Assembly: GCA_964460975.1 (NCBI GenBank)
Contig: CAYWTN010000004.1
Coordinates: 1 to 60,295 of the forward strand
DNA length: 60,295 nucleotides
Origin: an uncultured Pseudomonadales bacterium
GTDB taxonomy: Bacteria; Patescibacteriota; Microgenomatia; UBA1400; UBA1396
Reading direction: 5' to 3'
The notes beneath the pieces were generated by a model that was given only the letters and a program-made list of their open reading frames with translations, was not told the origin of the DNA and did not search any database. Made by a program: the position numbers and the translations under genes. This document shows, in pieces, positions 2,505 to 50,543 of this stretch. Positions within the stretch are counted from its first letter, which is position 1; every line of letters starts with the position of its first letter.

Positions 2505-3950
2505 ATGGCAACACGCTTAGACGAGATGATGGCATCTCGACAAACCGTCCGTACCAACCGCCTGACTCGCGGTGAGTCAGTGTACCCACAGGATGGACAT
2601 AAGCGACACACCAATGCCCAAGCCCTGGCTCTGCCAGATGGAGAAACGGTAGAAGTTGCGGGACGGATTCGTGCCATGCGCGGCCACGGGAAAATTCGTT
2701 TTGTGGATATCGTGGATGATACGGGAAAAATCCAAGTGGTTTTGAAGTCAGACGTGGCCGCCGCCTTTGAACAGATCGATGACTTCCACACGGGCGATTT
2801 TCTGCGTGTTGAGGGAGAACGATTCCTAACCAGAGCCAACGAGCCGTCCGTTTTGGTGAAAAACTTTACGATGCTCGCCAAGGCACTGCGCCCCCTGCCA
2901 GACAATTGGTATGGTTTCTCGGATGAAGAAGAGCGCTATCGCCGCCGCTATGTAGATCTCAACATGAATGAAGATGTAAAAACCGTCTTCCGACAACGTA
3001 GTGCCATTATTTCTAGCATCAGAAAAACGCTTGATGAATCAGGATTTTTGGAAGTAGAAACACCCACGCTCCAGCCTCTCTATGGTGGCGCCAATGCTCG
3101 TCCGTTTATCACACACATCAATGCCTGGGATATTCCTCAGTACCTCAAAATTTCTGATGAACTCTATCTCAAGCGACTCATTGTGGGCGGATTTGATCGC
3201 GTCTACGAAATTGATCACAACTTCCGTAACGAGGGTGTAGATCGCACGCACAACCCAGAGTTTACGATGATGGAGTGTTACGGCGCCTATCTTGATTACA
3301 ACGATATGATGGATCTCACCGAAGAAATGTACCGCAATGCGGCGTTGGCGGTACACGGAACCGCTCAGGTGGAATTCCAAGGAGTGACCCTCGATTTTAG
3401 CAAACGATGGAGAAGACTGCCAATGAAAGAAGGGATTCGCGAGTATCTGGGAATCGATGTGGATTCGCTCTCGGACGATGAACTGCGCGCTGCTCTTTTC
3501 CAGCACAAACTCAAGTATGAGGGTGAGTGGATTCGCGGACTGGCCGTTGCCAAGCTCTTTGAGCCAGTGGAAGAAAAACTGATTCAGCCAACTTTTGTCA
3601 CCGACATGCCCCGAGAAACAACCTCACTTTGCAAGCCGCACCGCCAAGATGCCACGCTTATTGAACGTTTTGAGCCGTACATTAATGGCTGGGAAGTGGG
3701 TAATGCCTACACCGAGCTGAATGATCCAGTTTTGCAGCGTCAGTTTTGGGAAGAGGAGCGTGCGGATGATCCCGAGGCGCACCCTCTTGACGAAGATTTC
3801 TTGGAAGCGCTGGAATACGGCATGCCCCCCACGGGCGGCCTGGGCTTGGGAATTGATCGCATGGTTATGCTTCTCACCAACCAAACTAAGATCCGCGACG
3901 TTATTCTCTTCCCCACCATGCGTCCGCTACCCTCTGGCCAGAACTCATGA
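2505..3950 (+). CDS. lysS: lysine--tRNA ligase (class II)
   Basis: OB-fold N-domain and class II core with motifs FRNEG, GGLGLGIDRMVMLL and ILFP. Start set at the internal ATG (MATRLDEMM), because the upstream ORF extension looks non-coding. Confidence 0.93.
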   Translation: MATRLDEMMASRQTVRTNRLTRGESVYPQDGHKRHTNAQALALPDGETVEVAGRIRAMRGHGKIRFVDIVDDTGKIQVVLKSDVAAAFEQIDDFHTGDFLRVEGERFLTRANEPSVLVKNFTMLAKALRPLPDNWYGFSDEEERYRRRYVDLNMNEDVKTVFRQRSAIISSIRKTLDESGFLEVETPTLQPLYGGANARPFITHINAWDIPQYLKISDELYLKRLIVGGFDRVYEIDHNFRNEGVDRTHNPEFTMMECYGAYLDYNDMMDLTEEMYRNAALAVHGTAQVEFQGVTLDFSKRWRRLPMKEGIREYLGIDVDSLSDDELRAALFQHKLKYEGEWIRGLAVAKLFEPVEEKLIQPTFVTDMPRETTSLCKPHRQDATLIERFEPYINGWEVGNAYTELNDPVLQRQFWEEERADDPEAHPLDEDFLEALEYGMPPTGGLGLGIDRMVMLLTNQTKIRDVILFPTMRPLPSGQNS

Positions 3951-4471
3951 TTATTGCTGTTGGATCAACCAATCCGGTTAAGCTCGAAGCCATTCGTTTG
4001 GCGGTAGAAGAGGTGCATACCAAACTGGGGCTGATTGGTCCTGTCGAGTTCTTAACCTTTGCCGCAGAAAGCAGCGTTTCTGACCAACCTTTTTCTGATG
4101 AAGAGACGAGGCGTGGCGCGCGCCACGCACTCCAATCCCTTCCAGATGCGGATCTCGCTTTTGGTCTCGAAGGTGGCGTTATGGAGATAGAGAACACTTT
4201 GTACTCAACTATCTGGATTGCCCTTATTGATCGACAAGGAAAAAAAAGCATCGCCAACGGCGGTCGTTTTCCTCTGCCTTCCGTTCTGGTCGAGGCGCTC
4301 CGAGACGGACAAGAAATGGGACCAGCAATGGACGAAATCACGGGGAAGCACGATATCAAACACAGTGAAGGCATGATTGGCGTCGTTACTGGTGGGGTTA
4401 TTACCCGCGCACAAGAATATGGCCACATTGCCAAGTGCGCTTATTCGCTCTACCATGGCCCAAAACTCTAG
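3947..4471 (+). CDS. yjjX: inosine/xanthosine triphosphatase (YjjX/DUF84 NTPase family)
   Basis: Collinear similarity to E. coli YjjX (STNPVK ... SDQPFSDEETRRGARHA ... GVVTGG). ATGA overlap with the lysS stop. Confidence 0.85.
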   Translation: MIIAVGSTNPVKLEAIRLAVEEVHTKLGLIGPVEFLTFAAESSVSDQPFSDEETRRGARHALQSLPDADLAFGLEGGVMEIENTLYSTIWIALIDRQGKKSIANGGRFPLPSVLVEALRDGQEMGPAMDEITGKHDIKHSEGMIGVVTGGVITRAQEYGHIAKCAYSLYHGPKL

Positions 4472-4855: not shown

Positions 4856-6112
4856 CTAAGCGGAAAAGGTTTTCTTGAGCTGTTGCAGTCCGTAAACGAA
4901 CGCGTCTACATCATCCTCAGTGCTATAAACCGCAAAACTGGCGCGAACCGTGGCAATCCATTTCTCTTGTGTGTGAAGCGGCATCGTACAGTGATGACCA
5001 GACCGAACCGCCACCCCATAGCGATCCAAAATCTGAGCCACATCATGAGCGTGAACACCCTCAACGAGAAAGGCCACAGAGCCGAGGCGTTGTATCGCGC
5101 CGCGCGCATCGCGCGGCGCGGGCCCCACAACCTCAATTCCAGGCAGGGATCGTAATTTCTCGTAGGCGTAGGCCACAAGATCGGCATCGTGATCACGAAC
5201 CTGTGGCATTCCCAACCCCGACAGCCAATCCAGCGCGCGCGCCAAACCAAAGAGACTAGCCACATCTGGTGTTCCCGCGGCAAAACGATCCTCAAGCTCT
5301 TCGGCTGCCGTGGATTCTTGGAAGGAAACACTGTGAATCATGCCGCCACCCCACAAAACAGGTTCCAAACGGGAAAGCTCCTCTTTCCTCATAATGAGTC
5401 CACCAATGCCCATGGGTCCGTAGAGTTTATGGCCAGAAAAAACGATGGCATCCACGCCAAGACGGCGAAAATCGAGCGGCAAGCGCCCGGCACTTTGCGC
5501 ACAATCCAGAGAAAATCGAACATTCTCACGCACTCCCCATTCCTTGAGCCAGTCAACCAGAATGGTTGGGTCGTTCACCGTGCCAAGAGTATTGGAAATA
5601 TGCGTCAGTGCTACCAAACGGATTTTTTGAGCGAGCGGCTGCAGCTCGTGCTTTGCCCGTTCCCAATGAATGCAACCGTTGTCCTCCAGAGGCAAAATGT
5701 AGAGATCGGCTCGGGCGGCGCGCGCAAGTCGTTGCCAAGGAACAAGGTGACTATGATGCTCCAAAGGTGAGATCACCACCACATCCCCCGCACGCGCCTG
5801 CTCCTTCCAAAGCTGCGCCAAGATATTCACTGCCTCAGTGGTGTTACGCATCGCAACAAATTCTTCAGCCTGCGCTCCAAAAAAGCTCGCAATTTTCTCA
5901 CGAGACTCATGATAGATCTTGGTACTTTCGTCACCAAGGGTATGAATACCTCGATGGACATTCGCATTGTGGTGACAGTAGTAATCAAGAAGCGCATCGA
6001 GAACCACTTGAGGCTTCTGTGTTGTGGCGGCATTATCCAGATACACCAACGGTTTCCCGTTCACTTGTCGAGACAAAAGAGGAAATTGCTGCCGGATATT
6101 CTCAAAACGCAT
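4856..6112 (-). CDS. sufS: cysteine desulfurase (class V aminotransferase, SufS type)
   Basis: Motifs YLDNAATTQKP, HANVHRG, SGHKLYGPMGIGGL (PLP lysine) and RSGHHC (active-site Cys). Confidence 0.9.
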   Translation of the reverse strand: MRFENIRQQFPLLSRQVNGKPLVYLDNAATTQKPQVVLDALLDYYCHHNANVHRGIHTLGDESTKIYHESREKIASFFGAQAEEFVAMRNTTEAVNILAQLWKEQARAGDVVVISPLEHHSHLVPWQRLARAARADLYILPLEDNGCIHWERAKHELQPLAQKIRLVALTHISNTLGTVNDPTILVDWLKEWGVRENVRFSLDCAQSAGRLPLDFRRLGVDAIVFSGHKLYGPMGIGGLIMRKEELSRLEPVLWGGGMIHSVSFQESTAAEELEDRFAAGTPDVASLFGLARALDWLSGLGMPQVRDHDADLVAYAYEKLRSLPGIEVVGPAPRDARGAIQRLGSVAFLVEGVHAHDVAQILDRYGVAVRSGHHCTMPLHTQEKWIATVRASFAVYSTEDDVDAFVYGLQQLKKTFSA

Positions 6113-10693: not shown

Positions 10694-11515
10694 ATGGGAT
10701 TTTCTCTCTACGGTTTTCTCTTTGGACTGAGCTTTGTCCTTGGACTTTGGAATGTGGAACGCTGGCTTATGCAACAACCACAGCACTCAAAACAGAACCT
10801 CAAGAGAGAAAAACTTGAAGGAATCATTGGGGCGGGCGCCGTGATGATTTTTATTTTCGCCATCATCGGCGCCCGCCTCTACCACTTTGCCACAGACGCC
10901 AGAGGGTTTAACCTTCTTGAGTTCGTGGCAGTTTGGAACGGCGGTCTTGGGTTCTTTGGGGGACTGGTGGGCGGCGGCGTGGGATTACTCGCCTGGCACA
11001 GGCTCTGGCAGCCTCCGTGGAAGCTCCTCACCATCCTCGACCTCGCCGCCGCCGCCCTCCCTTGGTCTCAGGCGCTGGGAAGATTGGGAAATTTTTTTAA
11101 TCAGGAAATCTATGGCCCACCAACCACCCTCCCGTGGGGAATTCCGATTGATGCCCATCTCCGCCCGCTACAGTTTTCTAACCAAACGCATTTTCATCCC
11201 CTGTTTCTTTATGAAACGATTGGCTCCCTTCTTCTTGGAACCGTTCTTTTTTCACTCCTGAAACACGCTAACAAACAAAAACAACACAATACTTTCAAAC
11301 CGGGCAATGGGATCTTTTTGGCAACATACTTAATAGGTTATGGCACAATCCGATTTTTGCTCGAGTTTCTTCGAGTAGAAACAGCTCCAGGGCTACTCGG
11401 GTTGAGCATAGCGCAAATCGTCTCGCTCTTTGCTGTCATTCTTGGTTTGACGTCTCTTTTGTTTGTTTTTTGTTGGAATCGTTCGCTACAATGGTCACAT
11501 GACCGATCCTTTTGA
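10694..11515 (+). CDS. lgt: prolipoprotein diacylglyceryl transferase
   Basis: Lgt signatures GGLGFFGGLVGG, LGRLGNFFNQEIYG and LPWGI. Confidence 0.88.
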   Translation: MGFSLYGFLFGLSFVLGLWNVERWLMQQPQHSKQNLKREKLEGIIGAGAVMIFIFAIIGARLYHFATDARGFNLLEFVAVWNGGLGFFGGLVGGGVGLLAWHRLWQPPWKLLTILDLAAAALPWSQALGRLGNFFNQEIYGPPTTLPWGIPIDAHLRPLQFSNQTHFHPLFLYETIGSLLLGTVLFSLLKHANKQKQHNTFKPGNGIFLATYLIGYGTIRFLLEFLRVETAPGLLGLSIAQIVSLFAVILGLTSLLFVFCWNRSLQWSHDRSF

Positions 11516-12383
11516 TCTTTCTATCTCCCCTTCTGTGGTTGAGCTCACGCTTCAGCCAGGGAAGCTGGTCACACAAACCTATCTCGTGGAAAATGCGGGA
11601 ACAGAGGACCTTCTTGTTACCGCAACACTGCGAGACTTTGTTTCTGATGGCAAAACGGGCACTCCTGTTCTCCAGGAGAGCAGCACTTTCCCTTATGCCC
11701 AGCTGCAAAACGCCGATATTTCACTCGATACTCCATTTCTGCTCCCTGCCAACAGCAGTCAACAACTTATTTTTGCGGTAAAGCCAGAAGACTCTGCAGA
11801 AGAAAAAGATTGGTATCTCAGTCTTCTCTTGCAGACGCAACCCGCAACAGCGCAAACACCGTCGCAAAGTGGCAGCCGTATCACTGGTCAAATTGCCAGT
11901 AATATCCTTGTACGTATTACCAACGACGATCGAATTCCGCTTAGTTGGGAACTCAAACTCCAAGGAGTGCCACGATATATAGACAGTCTGCAATCGATTC
12001 TCATTACACCACAAGTAACCAACTTGAGCCGCACTGCCGCTTCACCAGAAATGACGATTCTCATCCTAGACTGGCGCGGCAATATCATCTGGGAACAAGA
12101 TGCCCTTCCTGAGAGAGTTCTTTCTCAAAGTTCACGAGAAATCTCGGCTGCTGAGCAGAGAAAAGATGATCCACGCTCCTACCAACCAGCTGAATTCCGA
12201 TTCGATCCGCTTTTTGCCATAGGGCCATACACAGTAAGAACTACGATTCGCAATAATGCCGAGGGACCAAAAGTCCTTGAGCAAAGCTTTATTGCCTTTC
12301 CTTTTTCCGTGTTGATGGCAATACTTTTCCTCTGCTTAAGCTATCTCGCTCTCGTTCAGTGGAGAAAGAAAAAGCAACAGTAA
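11499..12383 (+). CDS. hypothetical surface protein, Ig-like/beta-rich with C-terminal TM anchor
   Basis: Start set at an ATG (MTDPFDLSISP). Beta-rich ectodomain and a C-terminal hydrophobic helix followed by WRKKKQQ. Any resemblance to DUF916-type cell-surface proteins is only an impression. Confidence 0.55.
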   Translation: MTDPFDLSISPSVVELTLQPGKLVTQTYLVENAGTEDLLVTATLRDFVSDGKTGTPVLQESSTFPYAQLQNADISLDTPFLLPANSSQQLIFAVKPEDSAEEKDWYLSLLLQTQPATAQTPSQSGSRITGQIASNILVRITNDDRIPLSWELKLQGVPRYIDSLQSILITPQVTNLSRTAASPEMTILILDWRGNIIWEQDALPERVLSQSSREISAAEQRKDDPRSYQPAEFRFDPLFAIGPYTVRTTIRNNAEGPKVLEQSFIAFPFSVLMAILFLCLSYLALVQWRKKKQQ

Positions 12384-15076: not shown

Positions 15077-15178
15077 ATATACCACCCATCGTATCGTACA
15101 AAAATCGTGTCTGTCAATGATGGTGTTTCCCTTAAAAATAGGCAAATACAACCCGAATCAAGGTGCTATAATTTGCGG

Positions 15179-15499
15179 ATGAAAGCACATCCCGAACATC
15201 GAGGAAACGGGCCCTCTGCCAGAGAACTTTTTCCAGAATCCCTCAGGAGAATTCTTTCTCAAAACTTAGAAACTGGCTTGCCCATCATTTGGTCGGAACA
15301 CCTTACTTTTGGTACTGTTGTTATTGATGAGCTTGTAGGAACCATCCTCGAGAAGTGGTTTGCCCATAACGACTGGAATATAACGGAGCCGATTTCTGAT
15401 GAGTTTCTTCATGCGTTTGAATATGATCTTCAGACATACCTTATTCGTCCTCAACTCGCCAGGTATATGGTTATCTGCAAAAGAATCCTCAAAGGATAA
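15179..15499 (+). CDS. hypothetical protein (106 aa), paralogous to the N-terminal part of the next gene
   Basis: Start set at ATG (MKAHPEH). Shares the pattern LP..W..HL.FG ... L.GT.LE..F...W with the N-terminal part of the ORF at 15506-16270. Confidence 0.5.
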   Translation: MKAHPEHRGNGPSARELFPESLRRILSQNLETGLPIIWSEHLTFGTVVIDELVGTILEKWFAHNDWNITEPISDEFLHAFEYDLQTYLIRPQLARYMVICKRILKG

Positions 15500-15505
15500 G
15501 AACAC

Positions 15506-16270
15506 ATGCAAAAAAGGAAAGAACAAGAACCGTATCTTCTCTCTCCACGAGAGGTGGCAGTGGGCGCGGCGGGCGAGATCCTCGCCCGCCGCGCCCATCA
15601 AGCACTCCTCATTGACCTCAAAAAATTCTTTATTTCTCTCCTCCCCAAATCTCTCCAGGGCGCCTTCGTAGAGCACGTCACTCTCCAACTACCTTACTAT
15701 CCTTGGTCGGTTCACCTCAGGTTTGGTTTTGCGGATGCCAATAATCTCATGGGCACACTCCTGGAAACCTCTTTCCAAAAAGGAGGTTGGATGGCGATAA
15801 CTCTTGAAGACTTCATTCGTTCCACAAAAAGTGACCCCGTTATTCTGGAAGACATTGTTCTTCCGCACCTCGTTGAACATGGTTATATTTTTTACACTCC
15901 TCATCGCGGCCTCATTGGACTCGCTCCCAAAGGAATTGAATCGATCTTGGAGCAGTTTCACCAAAACATTGCCCACGAAAAATCTGCTCTCCACAGAAAA
16001 ACAGATGATCAGATTGCCAAAGTTTCTCTCGATGTTTTGAAACTTTTTTCCCCAAAAATTCACTTCTATCTCCTTCAAGAAAACAGCCCAGACGGACTGA
16101 GAAACCTGCTCTATGAACTTCTTGATTCTTTGCAAGTAGATCATCTTCACGCCGAACATATTGCCCAACCACTTGCAACCTTCACCGATGAAGAGCGTGA
16201 ACGCGTTATAAACTGGATACTAGCGTATATAATCCAAGACTTCCGTCGAGAAATAGAAAAACGCGGCTAG
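15506..16270 (+). CDS. hypothetical protein (254 aa)
   Basis: Long ORF with plausible composition and no recognised domain. Contains a 37-nt perfect GC palindrome near its 5' end. Confidence 0.6.
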   Translation: MQKRKEQEPYLLSPREVAVGAAGEILARRAHQALLIDLKKFFISLLPKSLQGAFVEHVTLQLPYYPWSVHLRFGFADANNLMGTLLETSFQKGGWMAITLEDFIRSTKSDPVILEDIVLPHLVEHGYIFYTPHRGLIGLAPKGIESILEQFHQNIAHEKSALHRKTDDQIAKVSLDVLKLFSPKIHFYLLQENSPDGLRNLLYELLDSLQVDHLHAEHIAQPLATFTDEERERVINWILAYIIQDFRREIEKRG

Positions 16271-16289
16271 TTTTTTGCCTTGATAGAAA

Positions 16290-16325
16290 AAACGCCCCAT
16301 GAAACACGAGGCGTTTAGATTTTTT
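16290..16325. terminator. bidirectional intrinsic terminator between convergent genes
   Basis: AAACGCC (16290-16296) pairs with GGCGTTT (16310-16316). Flanked by an A-run upstream and a T-run downstream. Confidence 0.6.
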
Positions 16326-17001
16326 ACTTTTTTTCTTCTGGGCGGAGAGGATCGTTTTGGATCCCTAGACCGTTGATGCGGAGGATATACTGTCCTGCGT
16401 ATTCGTACTGTTCCCAGTCTGACTGGGAATCTTTGTACGAATATGTCTTCCCTTCATCGTCCTTAAAAAGGACGATGTACTCCTCTGATCTGCCGCGAAC
16501 CCGTTCGCAGCCGATCTCGGTTGCCTGGCAACGGAGGGAAAACTCTCCCCAATAAGGGGAAGGATCGGAGCGGTTCTTTGCGGAGGTTTTCACCTGGCGG
16601 GAGTCAACCCACCGATCGATGTCGTACTTATACCAATCTCTGTAGACTGGCTCGCTACGATAATAGGGATCCCGGACAGTCCGGGTTCTGGTTTCACCAC
16701 CAACTGTATAAGTTTCGGTGCGGGTGTTGTAACCCGCTAAGACCTGCTCATAGTGGTGCACTCGTCTCTCGGAGGAGACATTCCGAGAACCGCTTGGCAA
16801 AATCCAAGAGCCTTCTCGTACTGTACGATACTCTTGAATGTGGATCACGCGGACCCACTCAAGAGAATCTACCATAACTGGGACTTCCGTCTGCCTCAAA
16901 AAGAGGTAGAGGACAATGGAAAAAATCGCCGCTGCAAAAGTGAGCAGCGCAAACCAAATTGAAAGAGCTGGGTTGTTAGTGTAACCCCGTCGGCGCAACA
17001 T
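16324..17001 (-). CDS. hypothetical membrane-anchored protein (225 aa)
   Basis: One N-terminal TM helix, then a charged Arg/Tyr/Glu-rich ectodomain. No recognised domain. Confidence 0.6.
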   Translation of the reverse strand: MLRRRGYTNNPALSIWFALLTFAAAIFSIVLYLFLRQTEVPVMVDSLEWVRVIHIQEYRTVREGSWILPSGSRNVSSERRVHHYEQVLAGYNTRTETYTVGGETRTRTVRDPYYRSEPVYRDWYKYDIDRWVDSRQVKTSAKNRSDPSPYWGEFSLRCQATEIGCERVRGRSEEYIVLFKDDEGKTYSYKDSQSDWEQYEYAGQYILRINGLGIQNDPLRPEEKK

Positions 17002-17619: not shown

Positions 17620-17687
17620 GGGTTGTCTAGAAATTTCTCTAGGTGAATTTTGTAACGTCTTCTTGGTATGAACCAACTCTTTTATTG

Positions 17688-17759
17688 CAGGCCCACTAGG
17701 ATTCGAACCTAGACGAAAGGTTTTGGAGACCCTCATGCTACCGTTGACATCATAGGCCT
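17688..17759 (-). tRNA. tRNA-Trp (anticodon CCA)
   Basis: Hand-folded cloverleaf: AGGCCTA/TGGGCCT acceptor stem, anticodon arm AGGGT-CTCCAAA-ACCTT, T-arm CTAGG-TTCGAAT-CCTAG. 72 nt, CCA not encoded. Confidence 0.9.
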
Positions 17760-17839
17760 ATGACACAGCGTGGGTGTATTCTACCAGATTGGAAATTCAT
17801 CTGGTATACTACTCACTCTTCTGGTGGAGACGCCAAAGA

Positions 17840-17925
17840 GCCGGTTTACCCAAGTGGCCAACGGGGGCAGACTGTAAATCTGCTGGCAACAGCCTACGTA
17901 GGTTCGAATCCTACAGCCGGCACCA
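17840..17925 (+). tRNA. tRNA-Tyr (anticodon GTA), long variable arm, CCA encoded
   Basis: Hand-folded: GCCGGTT/AGCCGGC acceptor stem, anticodon arm GCAGA-CTGTAAA-TCTGC, 14-nt variable arm, T-arm GTAGG-TTCGAAT-CCTAC, then ACCA. 86 nt. Confidence 0.9.
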
Positions 17926-18400: not shown

Positions 18401-18426
18401 GGGCTGGCTCTGCAAAGAGCCAGCCC
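18401..18426. terminator. 10-bp perfect GC-rich hairpin between convergent genes
   Basis: gggctggctc-tgcaaa-gagccagccc. No strong T-run, so the terminator role is inferred from position only. Confidence 0.5.
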
Positions 18427-19950
18427 CTAATCAATAAAATTCCTTGTGTCCCACTCAATCCAAGTCACATCTTTGGAAAGATCGGCGCGCTGCGTGGTGT
18501 CTTCAAAGCGCAGCGGAACGCTGCGCCCAAAAACGACGGGAGCAAAGTGCTCGCTGTTTATTGCTTGATCAATTTGTTTGGACGATCCCCAGTGAGCATT
18601 CGTAATGCGTTCTTCATTTACAAAATAGATTCCAAATGGTTCTGGCCAGTCTTTTTTTTCCTGAATGGCGTTGTAGACACGTTCAGAAATTCGCGATCGA
18701 GTCATAGAATAGTGCCGCTCATAAGCAAAGGCGACAGAAACCACATTGAACACAACATATATGCTCAGCGCGGCAAAAATGAGTCGCGGCGTAAGTTTTT
18801 CCAGCAAATTACCAAGAAACATTCCTAGCCCCAACAGTCCGAGCGTCTGCCCCAGCGGATACTTGTGCTCAGGCAAGAAAAGCACCGGCAAAAGAGCAAC
18901 CACAAGAAATCCTCCAGAGAAAAGCAATGATTCCCACCACGTTTTCTCTCTCCAGCGCTTAGCAAACTGCCAGAGTCCCAGCAGTGAAAATGCGCCAACA
19001 GTGAGCAGAAACAGAACAATTATGGGAACACTATATTGAGGAAAATCAGTCCAAAAATGTGGCAAAAGTCTGAATCCACTGCCAACATAATGGATGGTCA
19101 ACTCAGGCAACCCGAGCGACCAAACGAGATACCAAATCCCGGTGTGAATAATCGCAAACGGTGAAAAAACCCAACTGTAATGCTCGCCGCCCACGCGATC
19201 AACCCCATACACGCCAAAACGCAAGCAAAGATAGGCAAGCGTCATAAATACCGAAGCCAACCATTCTTTCCAGCGCCATTCTCGGCGGTACAGCATTTGG
19301 AGAGTGAGCAGCGGAGCAAAAACCACAGCTGTTTCTTTACTGAGCAAAGCAAGGAAAAAGAAGAGCGCCCAAGCTTTCCAGGAAAAAACCTTCCTCAAAC
19401 TTGCCCACAGAGCCAGAACCACAAAAAGCGCCATGACGATTTCTTGCACAGCCGAAAGATAGGAAATGCGATAAAAATGTGTCACCGAAAATGCAAAAAC
19501 TATCTGAGACACCATCCTTGCCCGCCAAGAAAGACCGAGAGCTTCCAAGTATTTCCAAACGGCTACAAAAAGAGAGCCTGTGAGGAAAAGAGAGACGCCG
19601 TACCAAAAAAATGAGCGCAATCCAAAAACTGAGTACATGATCCAAAAGAAAAACTGACTCGTGAGTGGCCGGTACATGGGAGTGGAAACTTCATTCACCA
19701 CGGGAGAGAAAAACTGAAGCACTTGCCAAGGAGAATCGATCCGAGCCAGGTGCAAAAAGTACCAGTCGTCCTGCCAAAAAAAGTTTTGCAGAAGAGGAAT
19801 GTAAAGCGCCAAAGCCAACAAAGACAGTGCCAATACCCAACGCCCATGAGAAAGGATCTTCTCTTTAAAAATTGCCGTGCACTGCCAAGCTCTGCGTAAT
19901 AACACCATAGGTGAGGATTCTTTCTCCCTGCTCAATAGATTGAGGATCAA
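18427..19950 (-). CDS. polytopic membrane glycosyltransferase, GT39/ArnT/PMT_2-like
   Basis: About 12 TM helices with an acidic first-loop motif (FWQDDWYFL) and a C-terminal soluble domain. Start uncertain (ATG at 19950 or 19908). Confidence 0.55.
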   Translation of the reverse strand: MILNLLSREKESSPMVLLRRAWQCTAIFKEKILSHGRWVLALSLLALALYIPLLQNFFWQDDWYFLHLARIDSPWQVLQFFSPVVNEVSTPMYRPLTSQFFFWIMYSVFGLRSFFWYGVSLFLTGSLFVAVWKYLEALGLSWRARMVSQIVFAFSVTHFYRISYLSAVQEIVMALFVVLALWASLRKVFSWKAWALFFFLALLSKETAVVFAPLLTLQMLYRREWRWKEWLASVFMTLAYLCLRFGVYGVDRVGGEHYSWVFSPFAIIHTGIWYLVWSLGLPELTIHYVGSGFRLLPHFWTDFPQYSVPIIVLFLLTVGAFSLLGLWQFAKRWREKTWWESLLFSGGFLVVALLPVLFLPEHKYPLGQTLGLLGLGMFLGNLLEKLTPRLIFAALSIYVVFNVVSVAFAYERHYSMTRSRISERVYNAIQEKKDWPEPFGIYFVNEERITNAHWGSSKQIDQAINSEHFAPVVFGRSVPLRFEDTTQRADLSKDVTWIEWDTRNFID

Positions 19951-22592: not shown

Positions 22593-25550
22593 CTACGGCG
22601 CAACTTCTCTCCACTGGTAGCGTGGAGCGCGCATCTGGGCTGGCGTGCGCAGAACCAGGTCGGGGCGGTAGATAAAGAGCTCGGTTGGATTGGTGTTGTT
22701 GAGGAGGCGGCGGTCAACACCATCGTCGTAGTCGCGCTCCATCACAATGCCAGACCAGCCTACAAAGGTGCCAGCACCCACAAAGCGCTTATCACCACCC
22801 TGCGCCACACCAACACCAGGCAGGCGAATCGAGCCATTGGCCACAAACATACCTTCCACGTTTGGCGTGTTATCGGCAATGTCATCGTTGCCCACAGAAG
22901 GATCAATGATGATGTTTCCCTTCACAATAAAGCTCAGGAAACCGCCCTGGGCCACCCGAATCGTATTGCGAATTTCCAGGTTACCGTTCACAAAAATAAC
23001 AATGCTCTCGCCATCATTCACTTGCCACGATTCGTTGATCACCAGATCGCCACCGTGATAGAAGGCCGGAACACCAGAATTGGCCGGTGTGCCCAACGGC
23101 TTTTGGGCGTTGAGCGCAGAATCATGGAAGTCGTCTTGCGGATTAGCGGGGAATTTGTAGAGACGCGTAAAGTACTCGTAGCGCTCTTGGGCCGCACGGT
23201 TCGTTATCACAGCCAGGCGGTTTTCGCCGTCTTCGTCCACGATGTCACTCTGCACACCACTCTCAAAACGCAGATCCACGTCACCACCACCAGTGAGAAC
23301 ATACCCAGAAGTGTTGGCGCCGCCAGAACGCGTAATCATGTAAGGTTTACAACCCTCTTCTTCGGTACAAATGGTAGGAATCGGGTTCTTGATGGCCGTA
23401 CCACTCGGCTGATGAGCCATCACTGCGCCACCCTGCACTTGGAACCAGGGATGCTGCGCGTCGGTGACATAGAAGTTGACGTCCGCCAGAGGGCTGTCCA
23501 GGCCACCATACACACAACCAGCCGGACACGAACAGATAAACTGACCATTATTGATTACCAAAGAAACCGTGTTGGTTCCCGTCACCGAGTATGGCAAGTG
23601 AACCGTGTACGCACCTGATTGATCCACGACTGCTTGTTCCGAGAAGTTCTGCCAGTCCCTGCCAAGAACCGTAAGCTGCCCCACATCACCACCAGAGAGC
23701 TCTTGCATCTCAAGTTCGCGAACCACCCAGAAAAGACCGGCTGCCAGCCCCTCATTGGCACGTACGCGCCAGTAACGGTGAGGACCACTCGAATCAATCA
23801 CATAGGTGTGAGGATTACCATCATTATTCACCGCCAAGGTTTCATGACGCTGCCAGGTTTCGGCATCATCCGACCACTCAACATGCAGGGAACGAACGTT
23901 ATAACGATTATCCGTATTTTGACGAAGAGTAATTTTGCGAATATGTTTGGCACTTTCACTCGCTTCACCAAAATCCTGACCAACCCAAGCATTCCCGTTT
24001 ACGTCTGGGCCGCGTTGGGAGCTGCCCCAGTACGTTCCCGTGTTGTTGTCAAAAGCCAAAGCACGGCGAGCAGTTGTTGTATTGATATCACCGCTACTTA
24101 TAGCTTGAATCATGCTCGTTACGTCACCTTCGCTGGTGTTCACTGCCGTGGTTGGACCGGTGCAGAGATTGCCGTTCATCGTGGCGGCGCTGTTGCTATC
24201 CAGGTAAACCATGCCTGTTACTGGCGAAGAAACATAGAAGCTGCGCACGCTGGACCAGTCGCCAATTTGGTTGGCACAAGTAATATTCTCCGCTCGAACA
24301 CGAATCGTGTACTCACGAGAGGAAGCCACCATATTATGTGCCGCACCATTGGAAGTGACAATCTGCGAGGGGGTAACCGGCCCATCGATCATCATTTCTA
24401 TGTCATAAAGAACCCACTGATTATTGCCAGAAAGAGGAGCGTTGGCCAAAAGGCGCCAAGCACGATGTGAACCAGAAGCAGGGAAAGAGAATTCCTGAGG
24501 GGTATTGGTTGCTTCGAGCGTCTGAGTAGCAACGTTTGTCCAGGATGTGAGGTCGTCGGAGTACTGAACCCGAACCGAGGCTACGCGCTGGTTAGCATTA
24601 GCACTTTGTCGCACAACAACCTTGGTAATTTGGCGATAGGCAGAAGGAGTGGCTCCAAAATCTTGACCAACCCAAGCAGCACCATTCACCGCGGCACCTG
24701 TTTCGTGACTAGCCCAGTAGCTGGAAAGACTGTTGTCGAACGCACGCTGGCGGCTATTCTGGGATGTTGTTCCCGCACTCGCAATAACATGCGAGCCAGC
24801 AGGGCTCGTAAGATCTACCCCTGTTGGATTGAGTGTAGGCCAAATCTCAATGCGATAACGATCGGCTAAAGACTGACCATTCCAGGAAAGAGAGACGCGG
24901 TTTTGCAGGTCTGCCACAGCGTCTACACCTGCCGCTGGAGCCGCTACGGTTGGAATCCCTGGAATACCAAAATCACTGCTGCCGCAAGTGCCACCGCAAC
25001 CATCACCCTGTCCGCACTGTGCCGAACAAGAAGGATAGCAGGGTGGCGGCGGGGGCGGCCCGCCCCCGCCGCCACCATTCCCCGTTCCACAATACGTTGG
25101 ATCCCAAAGACACTGGCCTGAAGGGTTCGTTACACACTGACCAGAATCGTGTCCACACGAGCTACAAGAGCCACACCCTTGCCAACCGCCAGGGAGGGGA
25201 GGTTGCTCGTTGCCACCACCACCGCCGCCTTCATCGGGGATATCCTGGACATAACAACCCGTTGTTGGACAAACCCAGTTGGCTCCTCCCTGATACGGAT
25301 TATTGGTTGTGCACCAACCATTAATCCATTCACACTGGGCGTTGTAGGTGGTACCAACACATTGGTTGTTACAAGTACAGCCAGAGTCAGAATAGACATC
25401 ACATCCAACAGGATTACAAACGAGAGATTGATGAGAACAGCAAGTCCGAGAGCCACGACAGACACGTGCAGCTTGAACATCTGGGGCACTTCCCCAAAAA
25501 ACACCGAGACAACAAAAGGTAAAAAGGAACAAGAGAAGAAGGCGGCGCAC
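22593..25550 (-). CDS. large secreted protein: Cys-rich N-terminal module, poly-Gly/poly-Pro, two F5/8 type C (discoidin) domains, beta-helix-like C-terminal region
   Basis: GTG start with an AAGGAG-like RBS and a signal peptide (MRRLLLLFLFTFCCLGVFWGSAPDVQA). Two repeats carry AFDN..YW ... AWVGQDFG ... hallmarks of discoidin/galactose-binding-like domains. Confidence 0.8.
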   Translation of the reverse strand: MRRLLLLFLFTFCCLGVFWGSAPDVQAARVCRGSRTCCSHQSLVCNPVGCDVYSDSGCTCNNQCVGTTYNAQCEWINGWCTTNNPYQGGANWVCPTTGCYVQDIPDEGGGGGGNEQPPLPGGWQGCGSCSSCGHDSGQCVTNPSGQCLWDPTYCGTGNGGGGGGPPPPPPCYPSCSAQCGQGDGCGGTCGSSDFGIPGIPTVAAPAAGVDAVADLQNRVSLSWNGQSLADRYRIEIWPTLNPTGVDLTSPAGSHVIASAGTTSQNSRQRAFDNSLSSYWASHETGAAVNGAAWVGQDFGATPSAYRQITKVVVRQSANANQRVASVRVQYSDDLTSWTNVATQTLEATNTPQEFSFPASGSHRAWRLLANAPLSGNNQWVLYDIEMMIDGPVTPSQIVTSNGAAHNMVASSREYTIRVRAENITCANQIGDWSSVRSFYVSSPVTGMVYLDSNSAATMNGNLCTGPTTAVNTSEGDVTSMIQAISSGDINTTTARRALAFDNNTGTYWGSSQRGPDVNGNAWVGQDFGEASESAKHIRKITLRQNTDNRYNVRSLHVEWSDDAETWQRHETLAVNNDGNPHTYVIDSSGPHRYWRVRANEGLAAGLFWVVRELEMQELSGGDVGQLTVLGRDWQNFSEQAVVDQSGAYTVHLPYSVTGTNTVSLVINNGQFICSCPAGCVYGGLDSPLADVNFYVTDAQHPWFQVQGGAVMAHQPSGTAIKNPIPTICTEEEGCKPYMITRSGGANTSGYVLTGGGDVDLRFESGVQSDIVDEDGENRLAVITNRAAQERYEYFTRLYKFPANPQDDFHDSALNAQKPLGTPANSGVPAFYHGGDLVINESWQVNDGESIVIFVNGNLEIRNTIRVAQGGFLSFIVKGNIIIDPSVGNDDIADNTPNVEGMFVANGSIRLPGVGVAQGGDKRFVGAGTFVGWSGIVMERDYDDGVDRRLLNNTNPTELFIYRPDLVLRTPAQMRAPRYQWREVAP

Positions 25551-26119
25551 TATTCTCTCCTTCCAAAATCAAGGAATCTGTTGCCTTGAGCCACATATTC
25601 TTTTAATGCCTCAGTAACCCTTGGAGCGGTTGTACCATCGGCTTGTTGAAAAGCTACAGAAAGATGCGACAAAAGCTGCAAATTCACAAAGGTCTCAATC
25701 TGCTCATCACTCCAATCGTACTGACGCAAAACATCGGCTCCTATTTGGAGAGTAAAAATGAGGTTATATTGGGAACCAACATTCTCTACTGTTTTTTCGT
25801 AAGAAAAGAACGTTATTTGAGATCCATCGTCTGCTTCCCAAGACATTGGGGCCAGCTGCTGTTCATTTACGATAAGTACCTTAAGATTTCTAAACTGAGG
25901 ATCAATATTCTCGCCCAAGACATGAAAAACCACTTCTTCTGCCCGACTGTTTAAGGAAACAGGAAGGCTTGTCCTGTTCGAAAGAGAGACACGTTGAGAT
26001 GACAATCCAAAGGGTTCCAGATATCGATTCTTGTCTTCTGCTCGAAGGAAAAGGAACCACACACCAAGTGCAATAACAACAAAAAGGAGCGCTGGCAAAA
26101 CAAACTTGAGTGCGGACAT
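25550..26119 (-). CDS. hypothetical membrane-anchored protein (189 aa)
   Basis: N-terminal TM helix. Its stop codon shares 1 nt with the GTG start of the downstream gene (TAGTG). Confidence 0.55.
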   Translation of the reverse strand: MSALKFVLPALLFVVIALGVWFLFLRAEDKNRYLEPFGLSSQRVSLSNRTSLPVSLNSRAEEVVFHVLGENIDPQFRNLKVLIVNEQQLAPMSWEADDGSQITFFSYEKTVENVGSQYNLIFTLQIGADVLRQYDWSDEQIETFVNLQLLSHLSVAFQQADGTTAPRVTEALKEYVAQGNRFLDFGRRE

Positions 26120-26160
26120 CCTTTACTAGGATAGATCAAGATGAATGCCTAAGGCAAGGG

Positions 26161-27162
26161 TTATTTCTCAGTCATCATGAGGATATTGTCCAGATGATCA
26201 GGATTTACAGCATCGGTCCATGAAAACTGATTATTTCCACCAAGTGTCCATATTTTTTTCAATAATGGTCCATACCCTCCATTGGAGTCTCTCCGCAGTA
26301 TATCTGCAGATGTTAGCCCTTCATCTAAACCTTGACCAACTCTTACTCCTATAGCAACACTAGACATCACCATAAAAGGTGAAACTTGTCCTACTCTATG
26401 ATTCTGAACGCTACTCAAAGCAACAGAAATCACCGCAGTTCCACTTTCCTCATAAACCTTTATTCCTGTTGACCAGCCACTTTGGACTGGATACTGGAAA
26501 GTATTATTGTATCCAGGAATCACCGATCCTGGGTTCATGTGTCTAGCTCCTGTTCGGAAAGAGACAATGATATTGTTAATCCCATGTTTTTTTAGAAATG
26601 GCGTTTCTTTTTCTAAGAGAGATCTTAACTCGCTAGCAAACTCCTCTGCAGTCATTCCATAATTTGTTACTAAATCTGGGCTCAGTAAAAGATTTTCTGC
26701 AAAAGAATCTTCACTAGAAACCTCAAACGAAAGCCTCCATTCAACCTTTCCATTATCATCCAATACTTCAAAAGCAGCAGTTTCACGGAAGTGCTGAGAA
26801 AACTCTTCATCTTCCAGAGCCCTGTCACCCATGTGAGGACGGTAACGTACTACTTCTCCAGATTCATTGACATGTTCCCAAGTCATGGCATCAGGATTGA
26901 AGGTCCAGTCTTCACTCTCACGAATGTACTCAGGCACTGAAAGACCGGCTTTGATTCGATCCTCTAAAATTTCTTCCTTCGGTTCCGCAAAGATACTTAC
27001 AAATTCAGGAACTCCTGGTCTCGTCTCAGTAGGGACATTCCCGTCTTCTTGCGCTTGAGTAATACTCCCTCTTGAAGCAATCAATCCAATCGCTGCAGCA
27101 ATGTGGGCAAAGTTGTCCAGTCTTTCAAAAGACACATTGAAACGTTCAGAACTTTTAGTCAT
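26161..27162 (-). CDS. secreted hypothetical protein, paralog B of a tandem pair
   Basis: AGAGGAG RBS and a weak signal peptide. A 98-aa block is identical to paralog A, and the C-terminal domains are related but diverged. Confidence 0.7.
   Translation of the reverse strand: MTKSSERFNVSFERLDNFAHIAAAIGLIASRGSITQAQEDGNVPTETRPGVPEFVSIFAEPKEEILEDRIKAGLSVPEYIRESEDWTFNPDAMTWEHVNESGEVVRYRPHMGDRALEDEEFSQHFRETAAFEVLDDNGKVEWRLSFEVSSEDSFAENLLLSPDLVTNYGMTAEEFASELRSLLEKETPFLKKHGINNIIVSFRTGARHMNPGSVIPGYNNTFQYPVQSGWSTGIKVYEESGTAVISVALSSVQNHRVGQVSPFMVMSSVAIGVRVGQGLDEGLTSADILRRDSNGGYGPLLKKIWTLGGNNQFSWTDAVNPDHLDNILMMTEK
26703..26997. repeat. 295-bp near-identical direct repeat, copy 1
   Basis: Base-by-base comparison with 27795-28089 shows a single mismatch (cactag versus caccag). 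Confidence 0.9.
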
Positions 27163-27264
27163 AAACTCCTCTTTAATGTAAAAAATTGAATTAACTTACC
27201 CAAGCAAGCATACACTAATACCCTTCTCTCAAATAAGACTTTCTCACGGAGAATAACATTAATC

Positions 27265-28695
27265 TTATTTAAGATTAACTGAAAGGATATTGCTTTTATG
27301 GTCCCGATACTCATAAAATTCCGATTTGTTGCCTACAGACCAAAGCTGTGAAAGGATTGGAATAAATTTTTCTGGACCATCTTTTTGAAGAATATCAGAT
27401 ACTGATAAGCCTTCATCAAGTCTTTGTCCAACATTAAGACCACTAACAAGGTTTGCCAAAACACTAATTGGACCATTCTCTCCTACCCTATGATTCTGAA
27501 CACTACTAAGCGCTCCCAAAATAATAACGGTACCACTTTCCTCAAAGACTTTAATTCCAGTAGAAAGATTTCCCTGAACTGGATACTGGAAAGTATTATT
27601 GTACCCAGAAATAATGGTTCCTGGATTATTATGACGAGTATCTGTTCTGAAAACAACAATGACATTATTAATTTCATGCTTTTTCAAAAAAGAGAAATGC
27701 TTCTCTAATAATGAACGAGTCTCGCTAGCAAACTCCTCTTCAGTCATTCCATAATTTGAGACCAAGTCTGGGCTTATAGAAAGACTATCAAGATAAGAAT
27801 CTTCACCAGAAACCTCAAACGAAAGCCTCCATTCAACCTTTCCATTATCATCCAATACTTCAAAAGCAGCAGTTTCACGGAAGTGCTGAGAAAACTCTTC
27901 ATCTTCCAGAGCCCTGTCACCCATGTGAGGACGGTAACGTACTACTTCTCCAGATTCATTGACATGTTCCCAAGTCATGGCATCAGGATTGAAGGTCCAG
28001 TCTTCACTCTCACGAATGTACTCAGGCACTGAAAGACCGGCTTTGATTCGATCCTCTAAAATTTCTTCCTTCGGTTCCGCAAAGATACTCTGCCATTCAC
28101 CCTCTTCTTCTATAACAGGAATAACCTCCACAGGGGCAATGGCTGGCCCGATGGGCTGCTCGAGAGGATTTTCGCTATTGGAACCTGGAGCAATACCGGT
28201 AGACACCGCAGCAGGAGCCTCGTTTGGCTCGGAGGCAGGAACTGGTTCTGGAGTGACAGGTACAAGATCTCGTAAAAAGATCGGCGTGCCACTGACACCC
28301 CTTATGGCAACAAACTGATCACCATCAACAGGTTCACCATTCTTTTCAACAATTTTTGCCCAGTAATAGCCATTGCTTTCCCCAGCTTGCGTGACAACAA
28401 GGGCATCGCCTCGTACCAACGTTCCCTTAATCGTTCCAGTGGTGGAACTTGTTGAACGGATATTCACCGACGTTCCAACAACCACCGTTTCATACTGGGT
28501 TGTGTCTATCTCAGGAACTAGAGGGGCCATTTCGTTGGAATGCGTAGCGGCAGCCGCAACGGCTGTGCCACCATCATGAGGAATATTGTCTTGCGCCTTC
28601 ACTTCACTCGCCCCAGCCACCATGGCGGCAGCGATCAAGGACATATTGCGAAGACTTTCGGATGAGATCCTTAAACGTTCTGAACGATTACTCAT
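27265..28695 (-). CDS. secreted SH3b-domain protein, paralog A of a tandem pair
   Basis: Start set at MSNRSERL, preceded by a GAAGGAG RBS. Bacterial SH3-like segment (VVVGTSVNIRSTSSTTGTIKGTLVRGDALVV ... YYWAKIV), a Pro/Glu-rich linker, then the region shared with paralog B. Confidence 0.7.
   Translation of the reverse strand: MSNRSERLRISSESLRNMSLIAAAMVAGASEVKAQDNIPHDGGTAVAAAATHSNEMAPLVPEIDTTQYETVVVGTSVNIRSTSSTTGTIKGTLVRGDALVVTQAGESNGYYWAKIVEKNGEPVDGDQFVAIRGVSGTPIFLRDLVPVTPEPVPASEPNEAPAAVSTGIAPGSNSENPLEQPIGPAIAPVEVIPVIEEEGEWQSIFAEPKEEILEDRIKAGLSVPEYIRESEDWTFNPDAMTWEHVNESGEVVRYRPHMGDRALEDEEFSQHFRETAAFEVLDDNGKVEWRLSFEVSGEDSYLDSLSISPDLVSNYGMTEEEFASETRSLLEKHFSFLKKHEINNVIVVFRTDTRHNNPGTIISGYNNTFQYPVQGNLSTGIKVFEESGTVIILGALSSVQNHRVGENGPISVLANLVSGLNVGQRLDEGLSVSDILQKDGPEKFIPILSQLWSVGNKSEFYEYRDHKSNILSVNLK
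27795..28089. repeat. 295-bp near-identical direct repeat, copy 2
   Basis: See copy 1. The offset between copies is 1092 bp. Confidence 0.9.
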
Positions 28696-28909: not shown

Positions 28910-30067
28910 CTACTGAACATTTACCAACTCATAGCAGAATTGGTTGAACAGGGGAAAAGCGGTGCAGCTTGCACTCTGTCCGTCTTGCTCACAGAGGTAG
29001 GCACTGCCATTTTGGCAAACGGCGTAGTCGGCTATGGCCTCACCAACGGGCTGCTCGTAGGGAGCAGGATTACCCTCAGCCTGGAAGCTTAATGTGAGAT
29101 TGCCCTTGAGCAACTCTGGCGCAAAATACTGATAGTATGTGTCTTCCAGCTCGCCAGGATTGGCAAAAAAGCGGGCCAAAATCTCAGGATGAACGTGGGA
29201 AGACAAGACAAACGCCAAAGCCTGGGCCTCTGGAGTCCAGCTTTTTTGCCGCAGCGCTCTCCCTAGCTCCGTACCGTCTAGGCTTCCTGGGTTCTGCAAA
29301 GCGGCCGCAAACTCGCTGGCAAGCGTATCTGGAGAAAATCTCTGCAGGGTCTCGATGGGCGGCCAGCCATGTTCTTCGCCAGCTAAATAAAGACGATCAT
29401 AAACGGAAAAAAGGAAGGCTGGGTTGATACCATGCTTGAGGCCAGCATCATAGATGGCCTTCGTGATTTCTGGGTGCACTTCGCGCATCACCAGCCCACC
29501 CTTGGCATAATCCAGGATTGAGCTCGAAACAGTGAGCATGCGGCCAAAAAGGAAGAAAAGATCCTGTGTTTCCTGCTTTTTGGGCAGTGCATAGGAAAAA
29601 ATCGTGATGGCATTAGCCGCGCCACTTCCACGATGAATGGCAAACTGACACGTCTTCTCTCCACTCACAAAACACGGCGTTGAGTTTTCACGGAGCGGAT
29701 TTTCCCAAGATTCGAGCTCGTTGAGTGATTGTTTGGTATTTTCCAGATAAAACGGCGTGTAGACCTCACGCAGTTCTATGCCTTGGGCAGCGAGCTCCTC
29801 GGCGGTGCGGTACTGAGAAAGTTGTCCGTCTTCACTTTGAGGCGCTTCCTGAGAGAGTTGGGTGTTGGGCGCGGGTGCTTGCACCCGCGCGCGCCCCTGC
29901 TGCCAACGAGCAAACAAGACCGTGCTTACAACGACCAAGACAACCGCCAAAAAACCGCCACCAGCCAACAGCCAGATCGGAGTCGGCGCGGCATGGGTCT
30001 TTGCCTGGAAGGTCAAACCTTCTTGGGGAGGCGTGGCATTCTCGACGGGCAGATATCCTTCATTCAC
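28910..30067 (-). CDS. hypothetical signal-anchored protein (385 aa)
   Basis: One TM helix near the N-terminus (IWLLAGGGFLAVVLVVVSTVLF) and a large ectodomain with paired Cys residues. No recognised domain. Confidence 0.6.
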   Translation of the reverse strand: MNEGYLPVENATPPQEGLTFQAKTHAAPTPIWLLAGGGFLAVVLVVVSTVLFARWQQGRARVQAPAPNTQLSQEAPQSEDGQLSQYRTAEELAAQGIELREVYTPFYLENTKQSLNELESWENPLRENSTPCFVSGEKTCQFAIHRGSGAANAITIFSYALPKKQETQDLFFLFGRMLTVSSSILDYAKGGLVMREVHPEITKAIYDAGLKHGINPAFLFSVYDRLYLAGEEHGWPPIETLQRFSPDTLASEFAAALQNPGSLDGTELGRALRQKSWTPEAQALAFVLSSHVHPEILARFFANPGELEDTYYQYFAPELLKGNLTLSFQAEGNPAPYEQPVGEAIADYAVCQNGSAYLCEQDGQSASCTAFPLFNQFCYELVNVQ

Positions 30068-34760: not shown

Positions 34761-35124
34761 CTTTCATCAGCCTCTTCCACCATTTGAGCACAGATATCCA
34801 CACAGATTGGAAAGCATATTAAGTAGTGTTGAACAATCCTTTGATGGGCACCAATTTTATCCTACCGTTGGCGACGCTGCTTCTGCCTATTACTTTAAGC
34901 TCTGCTGTAAACATCCGTTCATGAATGGAAACAAACGACTTGGTATTTTATTTACTCACGTTTTTCTTTTACAAAATGGAGTTGATTTTTCTCTTGGTTG
35001 GGAAGATCTCTATTCTCTCACCGAGAATATAGCCAAAATGTCTGAAGAAGGCTATTCAGAAAAGGATGTAGAGCGGCTTTGCAAAAAAGCGATTGAAGAC
35101 TTTACCATACCGCACAACTTTTAG
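34672..35124 (+). CDS. doc: Doc-family (death-on-curing) Fido-domain toxin
   Basis: Doc-type Fic motif HPFMNGNKR (HxFx[DN][AG]NKR). About 150 aa, AT-rich. Start uncertain. Confidence 0.7.
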   Translation: MKQHLTALPKWYLSIKKCETIYKKFSRAISFHQPLPPFEHRYPHRLESILSSVEQSFDGHQFYPTVGDAASAYYFKLCCKHPFMNGNKRLGILFTHVFLLQNGVDFSLGWEDLYSLTENIAKMSEEGYSEKDVERLCKKAIEDFTIPHNF

Positions 35125-37800: not shown

Positions 37801-38094
37801 CTAAAAATCCAGCTCTGCCCGTGCGACTGGGGACATTTCCTCGATGCTCCAGGGTGGGTCGAACGACAGTGTTACCTTGACCTCATTCGGAGTGAGGCCA
37901 TCGAGAGCACCGCGGATGAGTGAAGGAAAAACACTCGCTAGCGGACAGGCTGGTGTGGTGAGCGTGTAAACCACTTCGAGAGTATTGCCCAGAATGATCA
38001 CATCGCGAATGAGCCCCATTTCCACCACACTGATGCGCAGTTCAGGATCGAGAACCGTCCCGAGGCGCTCGTAGACTTCATTTTTAGCAATCAT
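37801..38094 (-). CDS. DUF59/SufT-like metal-sulfur cluster assembly factor
   Basis: VYERLGTVLDPELRISVVEMGLI ... TTPACPL pattern of the MIP18/DUF59 family. Confidence 0.8.
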   Translation of the reverse strand: MIAKNEVYERLGTVLDPELRISVVEMGLIRDVIILGNTLEVVYTLTTPACPLASVFPSLIRGALDGLTPNEVKVTLSFDPPWSIEEMSPVARAELDF

Positions 38095-50517: not shown

Positions 50518-50543
50518 ACCTTACCTCAATTATACTACGAAGG

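Follow-up and report, generated by a model that had tools for sequence, protein, structure and literature searches.

How does a protein gene come to carry a perfect, GC-rich palindrome within its reading frame, and is a set of them in one stretch of DNA more than an accident of codon composition? The question is raised by contig CAYWTN010000004.1 of GenBank assembly GCA_964460975.1, from an uncultured Pseudomonadales bacterium placed by GTDB in the Patescibacteriota (Microgenomatia; UBA1400; UBA1396), of which positions 1 to 60,295 were analysed; this whole stretch of 60,295 nucleotides is called the window below. At 15561-15597 lies a 37-nt palindrome, tgggcgcggcgggcgag-atc-ctcgcccgccgcgccca, with perfect 17-bp arms, a 3-nt ATC spacer and a GC content of 88%. 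It forms codons 19-31 (VGAAGEILARRAH) of a 254-amino acid open reading frame (ORF) at 15506-16270 (+) and encodes (V)GAAGEILARRA(H), with the codons of the two arms pairing as G/A, A/R, A/R, G/A and E/L, and the 60-nt segment over it has an RNA minimum free energy (MFE) of -50.1 kcal/mol. On the arms, the codons and the product, a renewed scan agrees with the first-pass annotation of this DNA, which had also drawn attention to further palindromes of this kind. As a set, the palindromes are real and non-random. Alignments with relatives indicate that they are native codons rewritten in place and not insertions, and that the rewriting has been paid for in rare codons and amino acid changes. The best explanation, to which we give somewhat better than even credence, is repeated intramolecular template switching (quasi-palindrome correction or stepwise expansion), filtered by selection at the protein level.

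Coding palindromes beyond chance

An exhaustive scan of the whole window for perfect palindromes with arms of at least 9 bp and spacers of at most 8 nt returned 13, seven of them GC-rich and inside coding sequences (CDSs); in these seven, the arms measure 9-18 bp and the spacers 0-3 nt. An energy scan added four GC hairpins with longer loops or imperfect stems, likewise inside CDSs. All of the palindromes listed here are in frame with their ORFs unbroken, the stems range in stability from -30 to -50 kcal/mol, and the density of coding hairpins is about 1 per 5-6 kb. Host genes were predicted with a codon-usage caller and their identities checked by Pfam and NCBIfam. Every palindrome named in the first-pass annotation was recovered and is perfect, with one correction, that 38744-38781 has 18-bp arms around a 2-nt spacer, one pair longer than had been claimed. 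The three that had been placed inside other CDSs (25042-25076, 31924-31952 and 38744-38781) do lie there, in the genes of a secreted protein, GAPDH and a DNA ligase.

Codons of the types GCN/NGC, CGN/NCG and GGN/NCC are mutually complementary, and GC-rich islands are frequent in the window (175). Both facts speak for a reading by which GC-rich runs of Ala, Arg, Gly and Pro codons, being complementary to one another, throw up palindromes by chance. The null model consisted of 300 synonymous-codon shuffles within each gene, by which every protein and each gene's codon usage were preserved. Coding palindromes with arms of at least 13 bp were almost never produced (0.03, against 4 seen), and those with arms of at least 17 bp not once in the 300 shuffles, against 3 seen. 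The first-pass annotation had claimed an excess over chance and had named a codon-preserving shuffle as the test of it; that shuffle yields far fewer palindromes than the window holds. Local block shuffles keep much of the signal by construction, and for arms of at least 13 bp they gave 0.85 (15-codon blocks) and 0.30 (30-codon blocks) against the same 4, and for arms of at least 17 bp 0.33 (15-codon blocks) against 3. The folding energies tell the same story in their tail only: 34 of 6024 60-nt segments lie at an MFE of -28 kcal/mol or below, compared with 8.1 in shuffles, and the mean folding energy is the same as in shuffles. The excess of inverted repeats is limited to spacers of 0-8 nt (13 vs 4.5). 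In the window, loops of 31-300 nt show no excess of inverted repeats and direct repeats show no comparable excess. A search for decayed palindromes, in which antisense symmetry would persist in the peptide after DNA pairing had been lost, gave additional symmetric sites whose DNA complementarity was at chance level.

Relatives provided a second control. They were found by protein searches with the ligase and SufS, have 64-79% amino acid identity and lie on contigs syntenic with the window; the control set comprised the loci of seven of them, 92.5 kb in all, with a GC content of 45-48.5% and matching codon usage. These 92.5 kb are free of perfect GC-rich palindromes whose arms reach 10 bp or more, and only 7 of 9215 segments reach -28 kcal/mol or below, against the 34 of 6024 in the window. 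Since relatives with the same amino acid and codon usage are without such palindromes, the complementarity effect is excluded as the sole cause.

The palindromes might instead have been made by assembly or sequencing error, a suspicion fed by the low depth of the organism in public runs (~4-5x). Per-run Logan contigs speak against it. A contig of run X1 spans 15503-15680 with 0 differences, and independent contigs of X1 and X2, from two samples, span 24950-25138 or more with 0 differences, so reproducing the palindrome at 25042 exactly in both. At 38744-38781, per-run contigs built with k=31 stop at the exact centre, as expected for a 38-nt perfect palindrome; palindromes of this kind thus fragment short-k assemblies. 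An artefact would also not be expected to preserve reading frames and invariant residues. With the codon shuffles, the per-run contigs and the relatives all opposed to it, the reading as chance or artefact is ruled out for practical purposes, and we give it almost no probability.

Native codons rewritten in place

Had palindromes been inserted, or had codons already present been changed? The first-pass annotation had offered both, the former by analogy with the Rickettsia palindromic elements (RPEs), a repeated family of ~100-150 bp elements that insert extra residues into proteins. The window resembles the RPE case in that palindromes are tolerated in frame within protein genes, with the ORFs intact, and differs from it in having neither a consensus nor an insertion. 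In codon and protein alignments of the ligase, GAPDH, PfkB, SufS and DnaA sites, the length is unchanged relative to relatives, and the palindromes cover native, partly invariant residues. The suggested common consensus of the arms, with ggcggcg-type cores, did not materialise: the longest word common to any two palindromes is 10 nt and consists of G and C only, the window holds no other copies of the palindromes, and no conserved head or flanking duplications were found. RPE-like insertion is rejected at these five sites because there is neither a length change nor a shared arm consensus. For the orphan ORF (15561) and a G6P6 linker (25042) there is no orthologue by which insertion could be excluded, and this speaks for the possibility there. 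Taken over the whole set, mobile or selfish palindromic elements inserted in frame, or intragenic copies of the repetitive extragenic palindromic (REP) type, are highly improbable. The idea of a recoded native segment, in contrast, is borne out by the orthologue alignments of all five host proteins.

The clearest case is the ATP-dependent DNA ligase (38091-39899, -), in which the palindrome at 38744-38781 encodes S-VVAAPLERRRHH-L. In six relatives the stretch is S-(F/Y/L)L(H/Q)x-(P/A)L-xx-RR-x(K/I)-L; in the window it is S-VVAA-PL-ER-RR-HH-L, at equal length. Eight of the 12 residues differ from those of relatives, exactly under the palindrome and between conserved flanks, while two invariant residues (S373, R382) and four conserved ones (P378, L379, R383, L386) are retained. 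Codon pairs with codon across the arms as P/R, A/R, A/R, V/H and V/H. Codons that are rare in the window appear where pairing needs them (CTA, 3% of Leu; CGG, 8% of Arg; GCG, 19% of Ala), and both CTA and CGG are used in the ligase palindrome.

In GAPDH (31541-32587, -), a perfect palindrome with 13-bp arms and a 3-nt spacer at 31924-31952 covers the conserved motif D-LRRARGAAQ-N. At the position of its Gly, 160 homologues have Ala in 128 cases, Ser in 16 and Gly in 1; the Gly codon (GGC) is demanded by pairing with the Ala codon GCC of the opposite arm. LRRA is kept, the changes are S/A to G and R/K to Q, and there is no indel relative to the relatives L161 or L164. The PfkB-family kinase (35121-36053, -) carries an imperfect multi-stem GC hairpin at 35829-35882 with the motif GGGATNTAVGFARAGLRAA; the M and S of relatives are both A in the window, and both changes add stem pairs opposite a conserved GGGA. 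The palindrome of SufS (4856-6112, -), at 5096-5120, has 11-bp arms of 100% GC around a 3-nt spacer and encodes PAPRDARGA in a surface loop, where relative L166 has PTPKDADGK, of the same length and with 4 of 9 residues changed. In DnaA (51940-53526, +), the GC inverted repeat at 52889-52929 has arms of 10 bp around a 21-nt loop; one arm encodes the conserved SDRPP, and its complement, the other arm, encodes TRAGG in a variable stretch. The region aligns without gaps to the DnaA structures of B. subtilis and T. maritima. At the amino acid level the conserved arm is unchanged in GAPDH, PfkB and DnaA, which gives these sites a polarity, although the relatives are too distant for one to be read at the nucleotide level.

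Gain and loss among relatives

None of the seven relatives' loci has a palindrome at a site orthologous to one in the window. The best matches to the GAPDH, from genome and metagenome contig scans, came from Paceibacterota, Woesebacteria and Microgenomates metagenome-assembled genomes at no more than 58% identity, and their loci were likewise without comparable palindromes.

One relative (L169, 66% identity) has a quasi-palindrome of its own in the ligase gene, at a different site. This is ATGCGCCAGCGCGCG-GAA-CGCGTGCTGGCGCAT at 11516-11548, with 15-bp arms and one G.T mismatch, and it encodes MRQRA-E-RVLAH; at that position its sister, L170, reads LRQRC-D-ELQSR. With the left arm common to the two, it is the right arm of L169 that has been overwritten, over five codons, by the reverse complement of the left. 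Sites of this kind are thus gained independently in related lineages and are far denser in the lineage of the window; the window's palindromes are lineage-specific, with sporadic counterparts in relatives. Two weaker structures were also seen, a 9-bp GC palindrome in the GAPDH gene of L169 at 19114-19134 and a long-loop GC hairpin in recF of L164 at 281-340.

Such a sharp contrast in intensity among close lineages of the candidate phyla radiation (CPR) with reduced genomes suggests that they differ in population size or in the fidelity of replication or repair. It is possible, if doubtful, that a lineage-specific active process both creates and keeps perfect GC-rich intragenic palindromes, through either a lost or altered replication or repair function or a function of the hairpins themselves. 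Guessing from E. coli genetics, candidates for the lost functions are 3' single-stranded DNA exonucleases and hairpin or 3'-end processing. If true, such a process would be a bacterial counterpart of the coding palindromes of hairworm mitochondria, rewriting conserved enzyme motifs several residues at a time.

Copying or selection for hairpins

By the template-switching mechanism, the nascent strand at a GC-rich cluster of Ala, Gly, Arg and Pro codons would snap back onto a short complementary nucleus, copy its own sequence for a few to ~18 nt and rejoin the template in register, leaving a multi-nucleotide but length-neutral replacement. Purifying selection on the protein would then retain only those events that copied from the conserved arm and overwrote tolerant positions, a filter that would account for the conserved arm being, in every case, the apparent template. 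Repeated events, or the correction of mismatches within the hairpin, would maintain the arms as perfect complements and lengthen them up to the point where invariant residues allow no more. Few long AT-rich coding palindromes would persist: weak stems fail to nucleate, and the complement of an AT-rich arm brings in stop codons or radical changes. In this CPR lineage the process would be unusually frequent, or its products unusually easily fixed.

The main competitor holds that the hairpins are selected structures, for which point mutations that increase pairing were fixed within the limits set by the protein. The roles proposed for them are, in mRNA, as decay barriers, RNase sites or translational pauses and, in DNA, as cruciform or single-stranded hairpin sites for proteins or as pause sites for replication or transcription. 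Several facts favour it. The stems are very stable, a price has been paid for them in rare codons and in a rare residue at a conserved GAPDH position, both arms are changed in the ligase and SufS, as expected if pairing is the target, and hairpins at their observed density occur in a lineage with little intergenic space for such elements. Selection on hairpins does not sit easily, however, with their absence from the orthologous sites of relatives at 64-79% identity, one of which has its strong coding hairpin elsewhere, nor with the lack of T-tails. The hosts range from an orphan ORF to GAPDH and DnaA, with no common sequence, loop type or gene position. Bacterial inverted repeats are typically intergenic, with spacers of 4 nt, and functional bacterial hairpins mostly have 4-nt loops outside genes (PMC13155455), whereas spacers of 0-3 nt with complementarity in a sterically unpaired centre do not suit selection for stability. 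Among RNA sequencing runs, none was found to contain this organism. We regard selected hairpins as rather unlikely, while giving them real weight.

Copying by template switching appears to fit better, and is supported by the strict Watson-Crick stems and by the limitation of the excess to short spacers. Signs of copying rather than hairpin optimisation may also be seen in complementarity that often reaches a centre unable to pair (spacers of 0, 1, 2 and 2). That the sites have so little in common and that none is conserved, together with the one-arm polarity in L169, would be a further fit to copying. So would the quasi-palindrome at 57445-57486 (MFE -41.9 kcal/mol), whose two 8-bp GC stems fall within low-complexity sequence at the N terminus of a DUF4012 protein (57382-59721, +), and whose sole imperfection is an asymmetric 2-nt/1-nt bulge between the stems, the removal of which needs a frameshift. 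From these patterns we infer both the copying mechanism and the non-adaptive nature of the hairpins. Among the origins offered in the first-pass annotation, quasi-palindrome correction by template switching has turned out to be the best supported, through in-place recoding, arm complementarity, rare codons and residues, and gain and loss in relatives, and we lean towards it by a modest measure.

Several points weigh against this explanation. In the ligase (four of six residues per arm) and in SufS, both arms differ from those of all relatives, so that a single switch from a relative-like ancestor is insufficient and either several successive events or selection for pairing is needed. With the nearest relative at 79% amino acid identity and synonymous sites saturated, a nucleotide-level polarity is out of reach for every event. 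The same pattern of conserved and variable arms would follow from selection for a hairpin in a constrained protein. Copying accounts only post hoc for the strong GC enrichment in both arms and for the lack of long AT-rich examples, and leaves the lineage-specific excess unaccounted for. The sequencing support, finally, comes from two public metagenome runs with the organism at ~4-5x, in the form of per-run Logan contigs and not of reads.

Relation to known systems

In E. coli, template switching makes quasi-palindromes perfect in a length-neutral manner, as in the Ripley model and at the thyA hotspot (PMC7202029), and an excess of perfect inverted repeats in that genome has been attributed to it (PMC5941160). 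The sites of the window share with such quasi-palindrome mutations that short-spacer repeats are made perfect by multi-nucleotide, length-neutral changes with strict Watson-Crick pairing inside genes. They differ in that the products are fixed, reach arms of up to 18 bp, occur about once per 5-6 kb of coding DNA in one lineage and overwrite several codons of conserved enzymes; they are known from sequence, with the mutational event itself unobserved. In yeast genes, template switching replaces up to five adjacent amino acids (PMC8604942), and it is able to form perfect stems in one step (PMC8794818). As in those yeast and RNA-stem cases, a single event would homogenise the arms, could mimic positive selection and could create a perfect stem at once; the ligase quasi-palindrome of L169 has exactly the look of such one-step creation. 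Two differences are that those studies polarised events on dense phylogenies and that the ligase and SufS of the window differ from relatives in both arms.

The closest parallel comes from the mitochondria of Nematomorpha, for whose coding palindromes template switching has been proposed (PMC6649704). There, too, perfect repeats lie in functional genes, both arms are translated, conserved residues are kept, and gain and loss occur among lineages; the palindromes have no known function, and their proposed origin is arm conversion or template switching. The hairworm palindromes are mitochondrial, with arms of up to 284 bp and nearly all perfect; those of the window are on a bacterial chromosome, have arms of 9-18 bp and include four imperfect ones, and their arms are strongly GC-rich in a 48% GC genome, unlike the hairworm case. 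The window is a bacterial example of these known "coding palindromes", notable for the rewriting of conserved enzyme motifs and for the sharp contrast between lineages. If the mechanism is true, a replication error would have rewritten up to eight adjacent residues of an essential bacterial enzyme in place, a pattern that would otherwise pass for positive selection or recombination. Coding palindromes can also mislead codon-based selection tests and scans for RNA structure.

Two other kinds of bacterial stem-loop were considered. REP elements and the related bacterial interspersed mosaic elements (BIMEs), like intrinsic terminators, are GC-rich stem-loops of similar size to those described here. 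REP elements are extragenic and multi-copy, with a conserved GTAG/CGTC head, and were ruled out by the location of all the palindromes in CDSs, their unique sequences and the lack of such a head. Terminators are extragenic and consist of a GC stem followed by a T-tract; the coding palindromes are without T-tails, which ruled out intrinsic terminators and attenuators. The palindrome at 15561-15597 is for this reason not terminator-like, and a terminator scan of 15100-16600 placed none there, its sole terminator being at 16290-16316.

Other hosts and palindromes

The ORF with the palindrome at 15561-15597 is taken as coding from its length and codon-usage score; its product has neither a family match nor, among 5.8e9 clustered proteins, a homologue, and the AlphaFold model of this 254-amino acid orphan has a pLDDT of 49, too low to use. 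The palindrome at 25042-25076 (17-bp arms, 1-nt spacer, 94% GC) encodes GGGGGGPPPPPP in a linker of the 985-amino acid protein of 22593-25550 (-), which is secreted, rich in Cys and built with Gly/Pro linkers and two F5/8 type C (discoidin) domains. This protein has a further G6...PPLP stretch, at ~25190-25230, that is non-palindromic.

At 29869-29890, a perfect palindrome with 10-bp arms and a 2-nt spacer encodes RARVQAPA directly after a membrane helix of a hypothetical 385-amino acid protein (28910-30067, -), in a region where alignment to a relative is unreliable. The shortest, at 4111-4128, has 9-bp arms and no spacer and encodes RRGARHA in a DUF84 NTPase (3947-4471, +). In the Lgt gene (10694-11515, +), the GC hairpin at 10831-10877 has 11-bp perfect arms, or ~16 bp with a one-base bulge, and an MFE of -36.1 kcal/mol.

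Window context and non-coding hairpins

The window as a whole has a GC content of 48%, 47% at third codon positions (GC3), and moderate codon usage. The presence of dnaA, of dnaN (53832-54941) and of a minimum of the cumulative GC skew at ~54-56 kb places it at the replication origin. An Rfam search of the window returned two tRNAs only, the divergent tRNA-Trp(CCA) and tRNA-Tyr(GTA) at 17687-17925. The per-run contigs covering them have 15-60x the flanking depth, because this sequence is common to other members of the community.

Hairpins of other kinds are also present. The terminator hairpin at 16290-16316 is canonical and follows the stop of a hypothetical gene at 16324-17001 (-), near whose 3' end, at 16391-16477, are two palindromes not rich in GC. 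The first, ttcccagtc-T-gactgggaa, sits inside an outer stem of 12 bp; the second is catcgtcctt-AAA-aaggacgatg. The structure at 18401-18426 resembles an ordinary terminator hairpin. Between the divergent genes for an FNR-like oxidoreductase (1135-1857, -) and LysRS lies an 84-nt nested intergenic hairpin at 1926-2009, which again is not GC-rich. Its outer 13-bp arms, GGAACGATTCCGG and CCGGAATCGTTCC, enclose a perfect palindrome of 19+19 nt with zero spacer (1949-1986), its DNA fold has an energy of -37.8 kcal/mol (z = -9.4), and the half-site GGAATCG/CGATTCC occurs four times in dyad arrangement; it looks like a putative operator. The ~500 nt that follow (2010-2504), upstream of the LysRS start (ATG near 2505), have A-runs and no convincing gene, and a comparison with Rfam gave no family match and detected no T-box or lysine riboswitch. 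Two islands of low GC content, at 26000-28000 and 48000-52000 (38-40% against 48%), encode large proteins without a family match, such as the 1048-amino acid product of 47371-50517, and could be acquired genes or fast-evolving surface genes.

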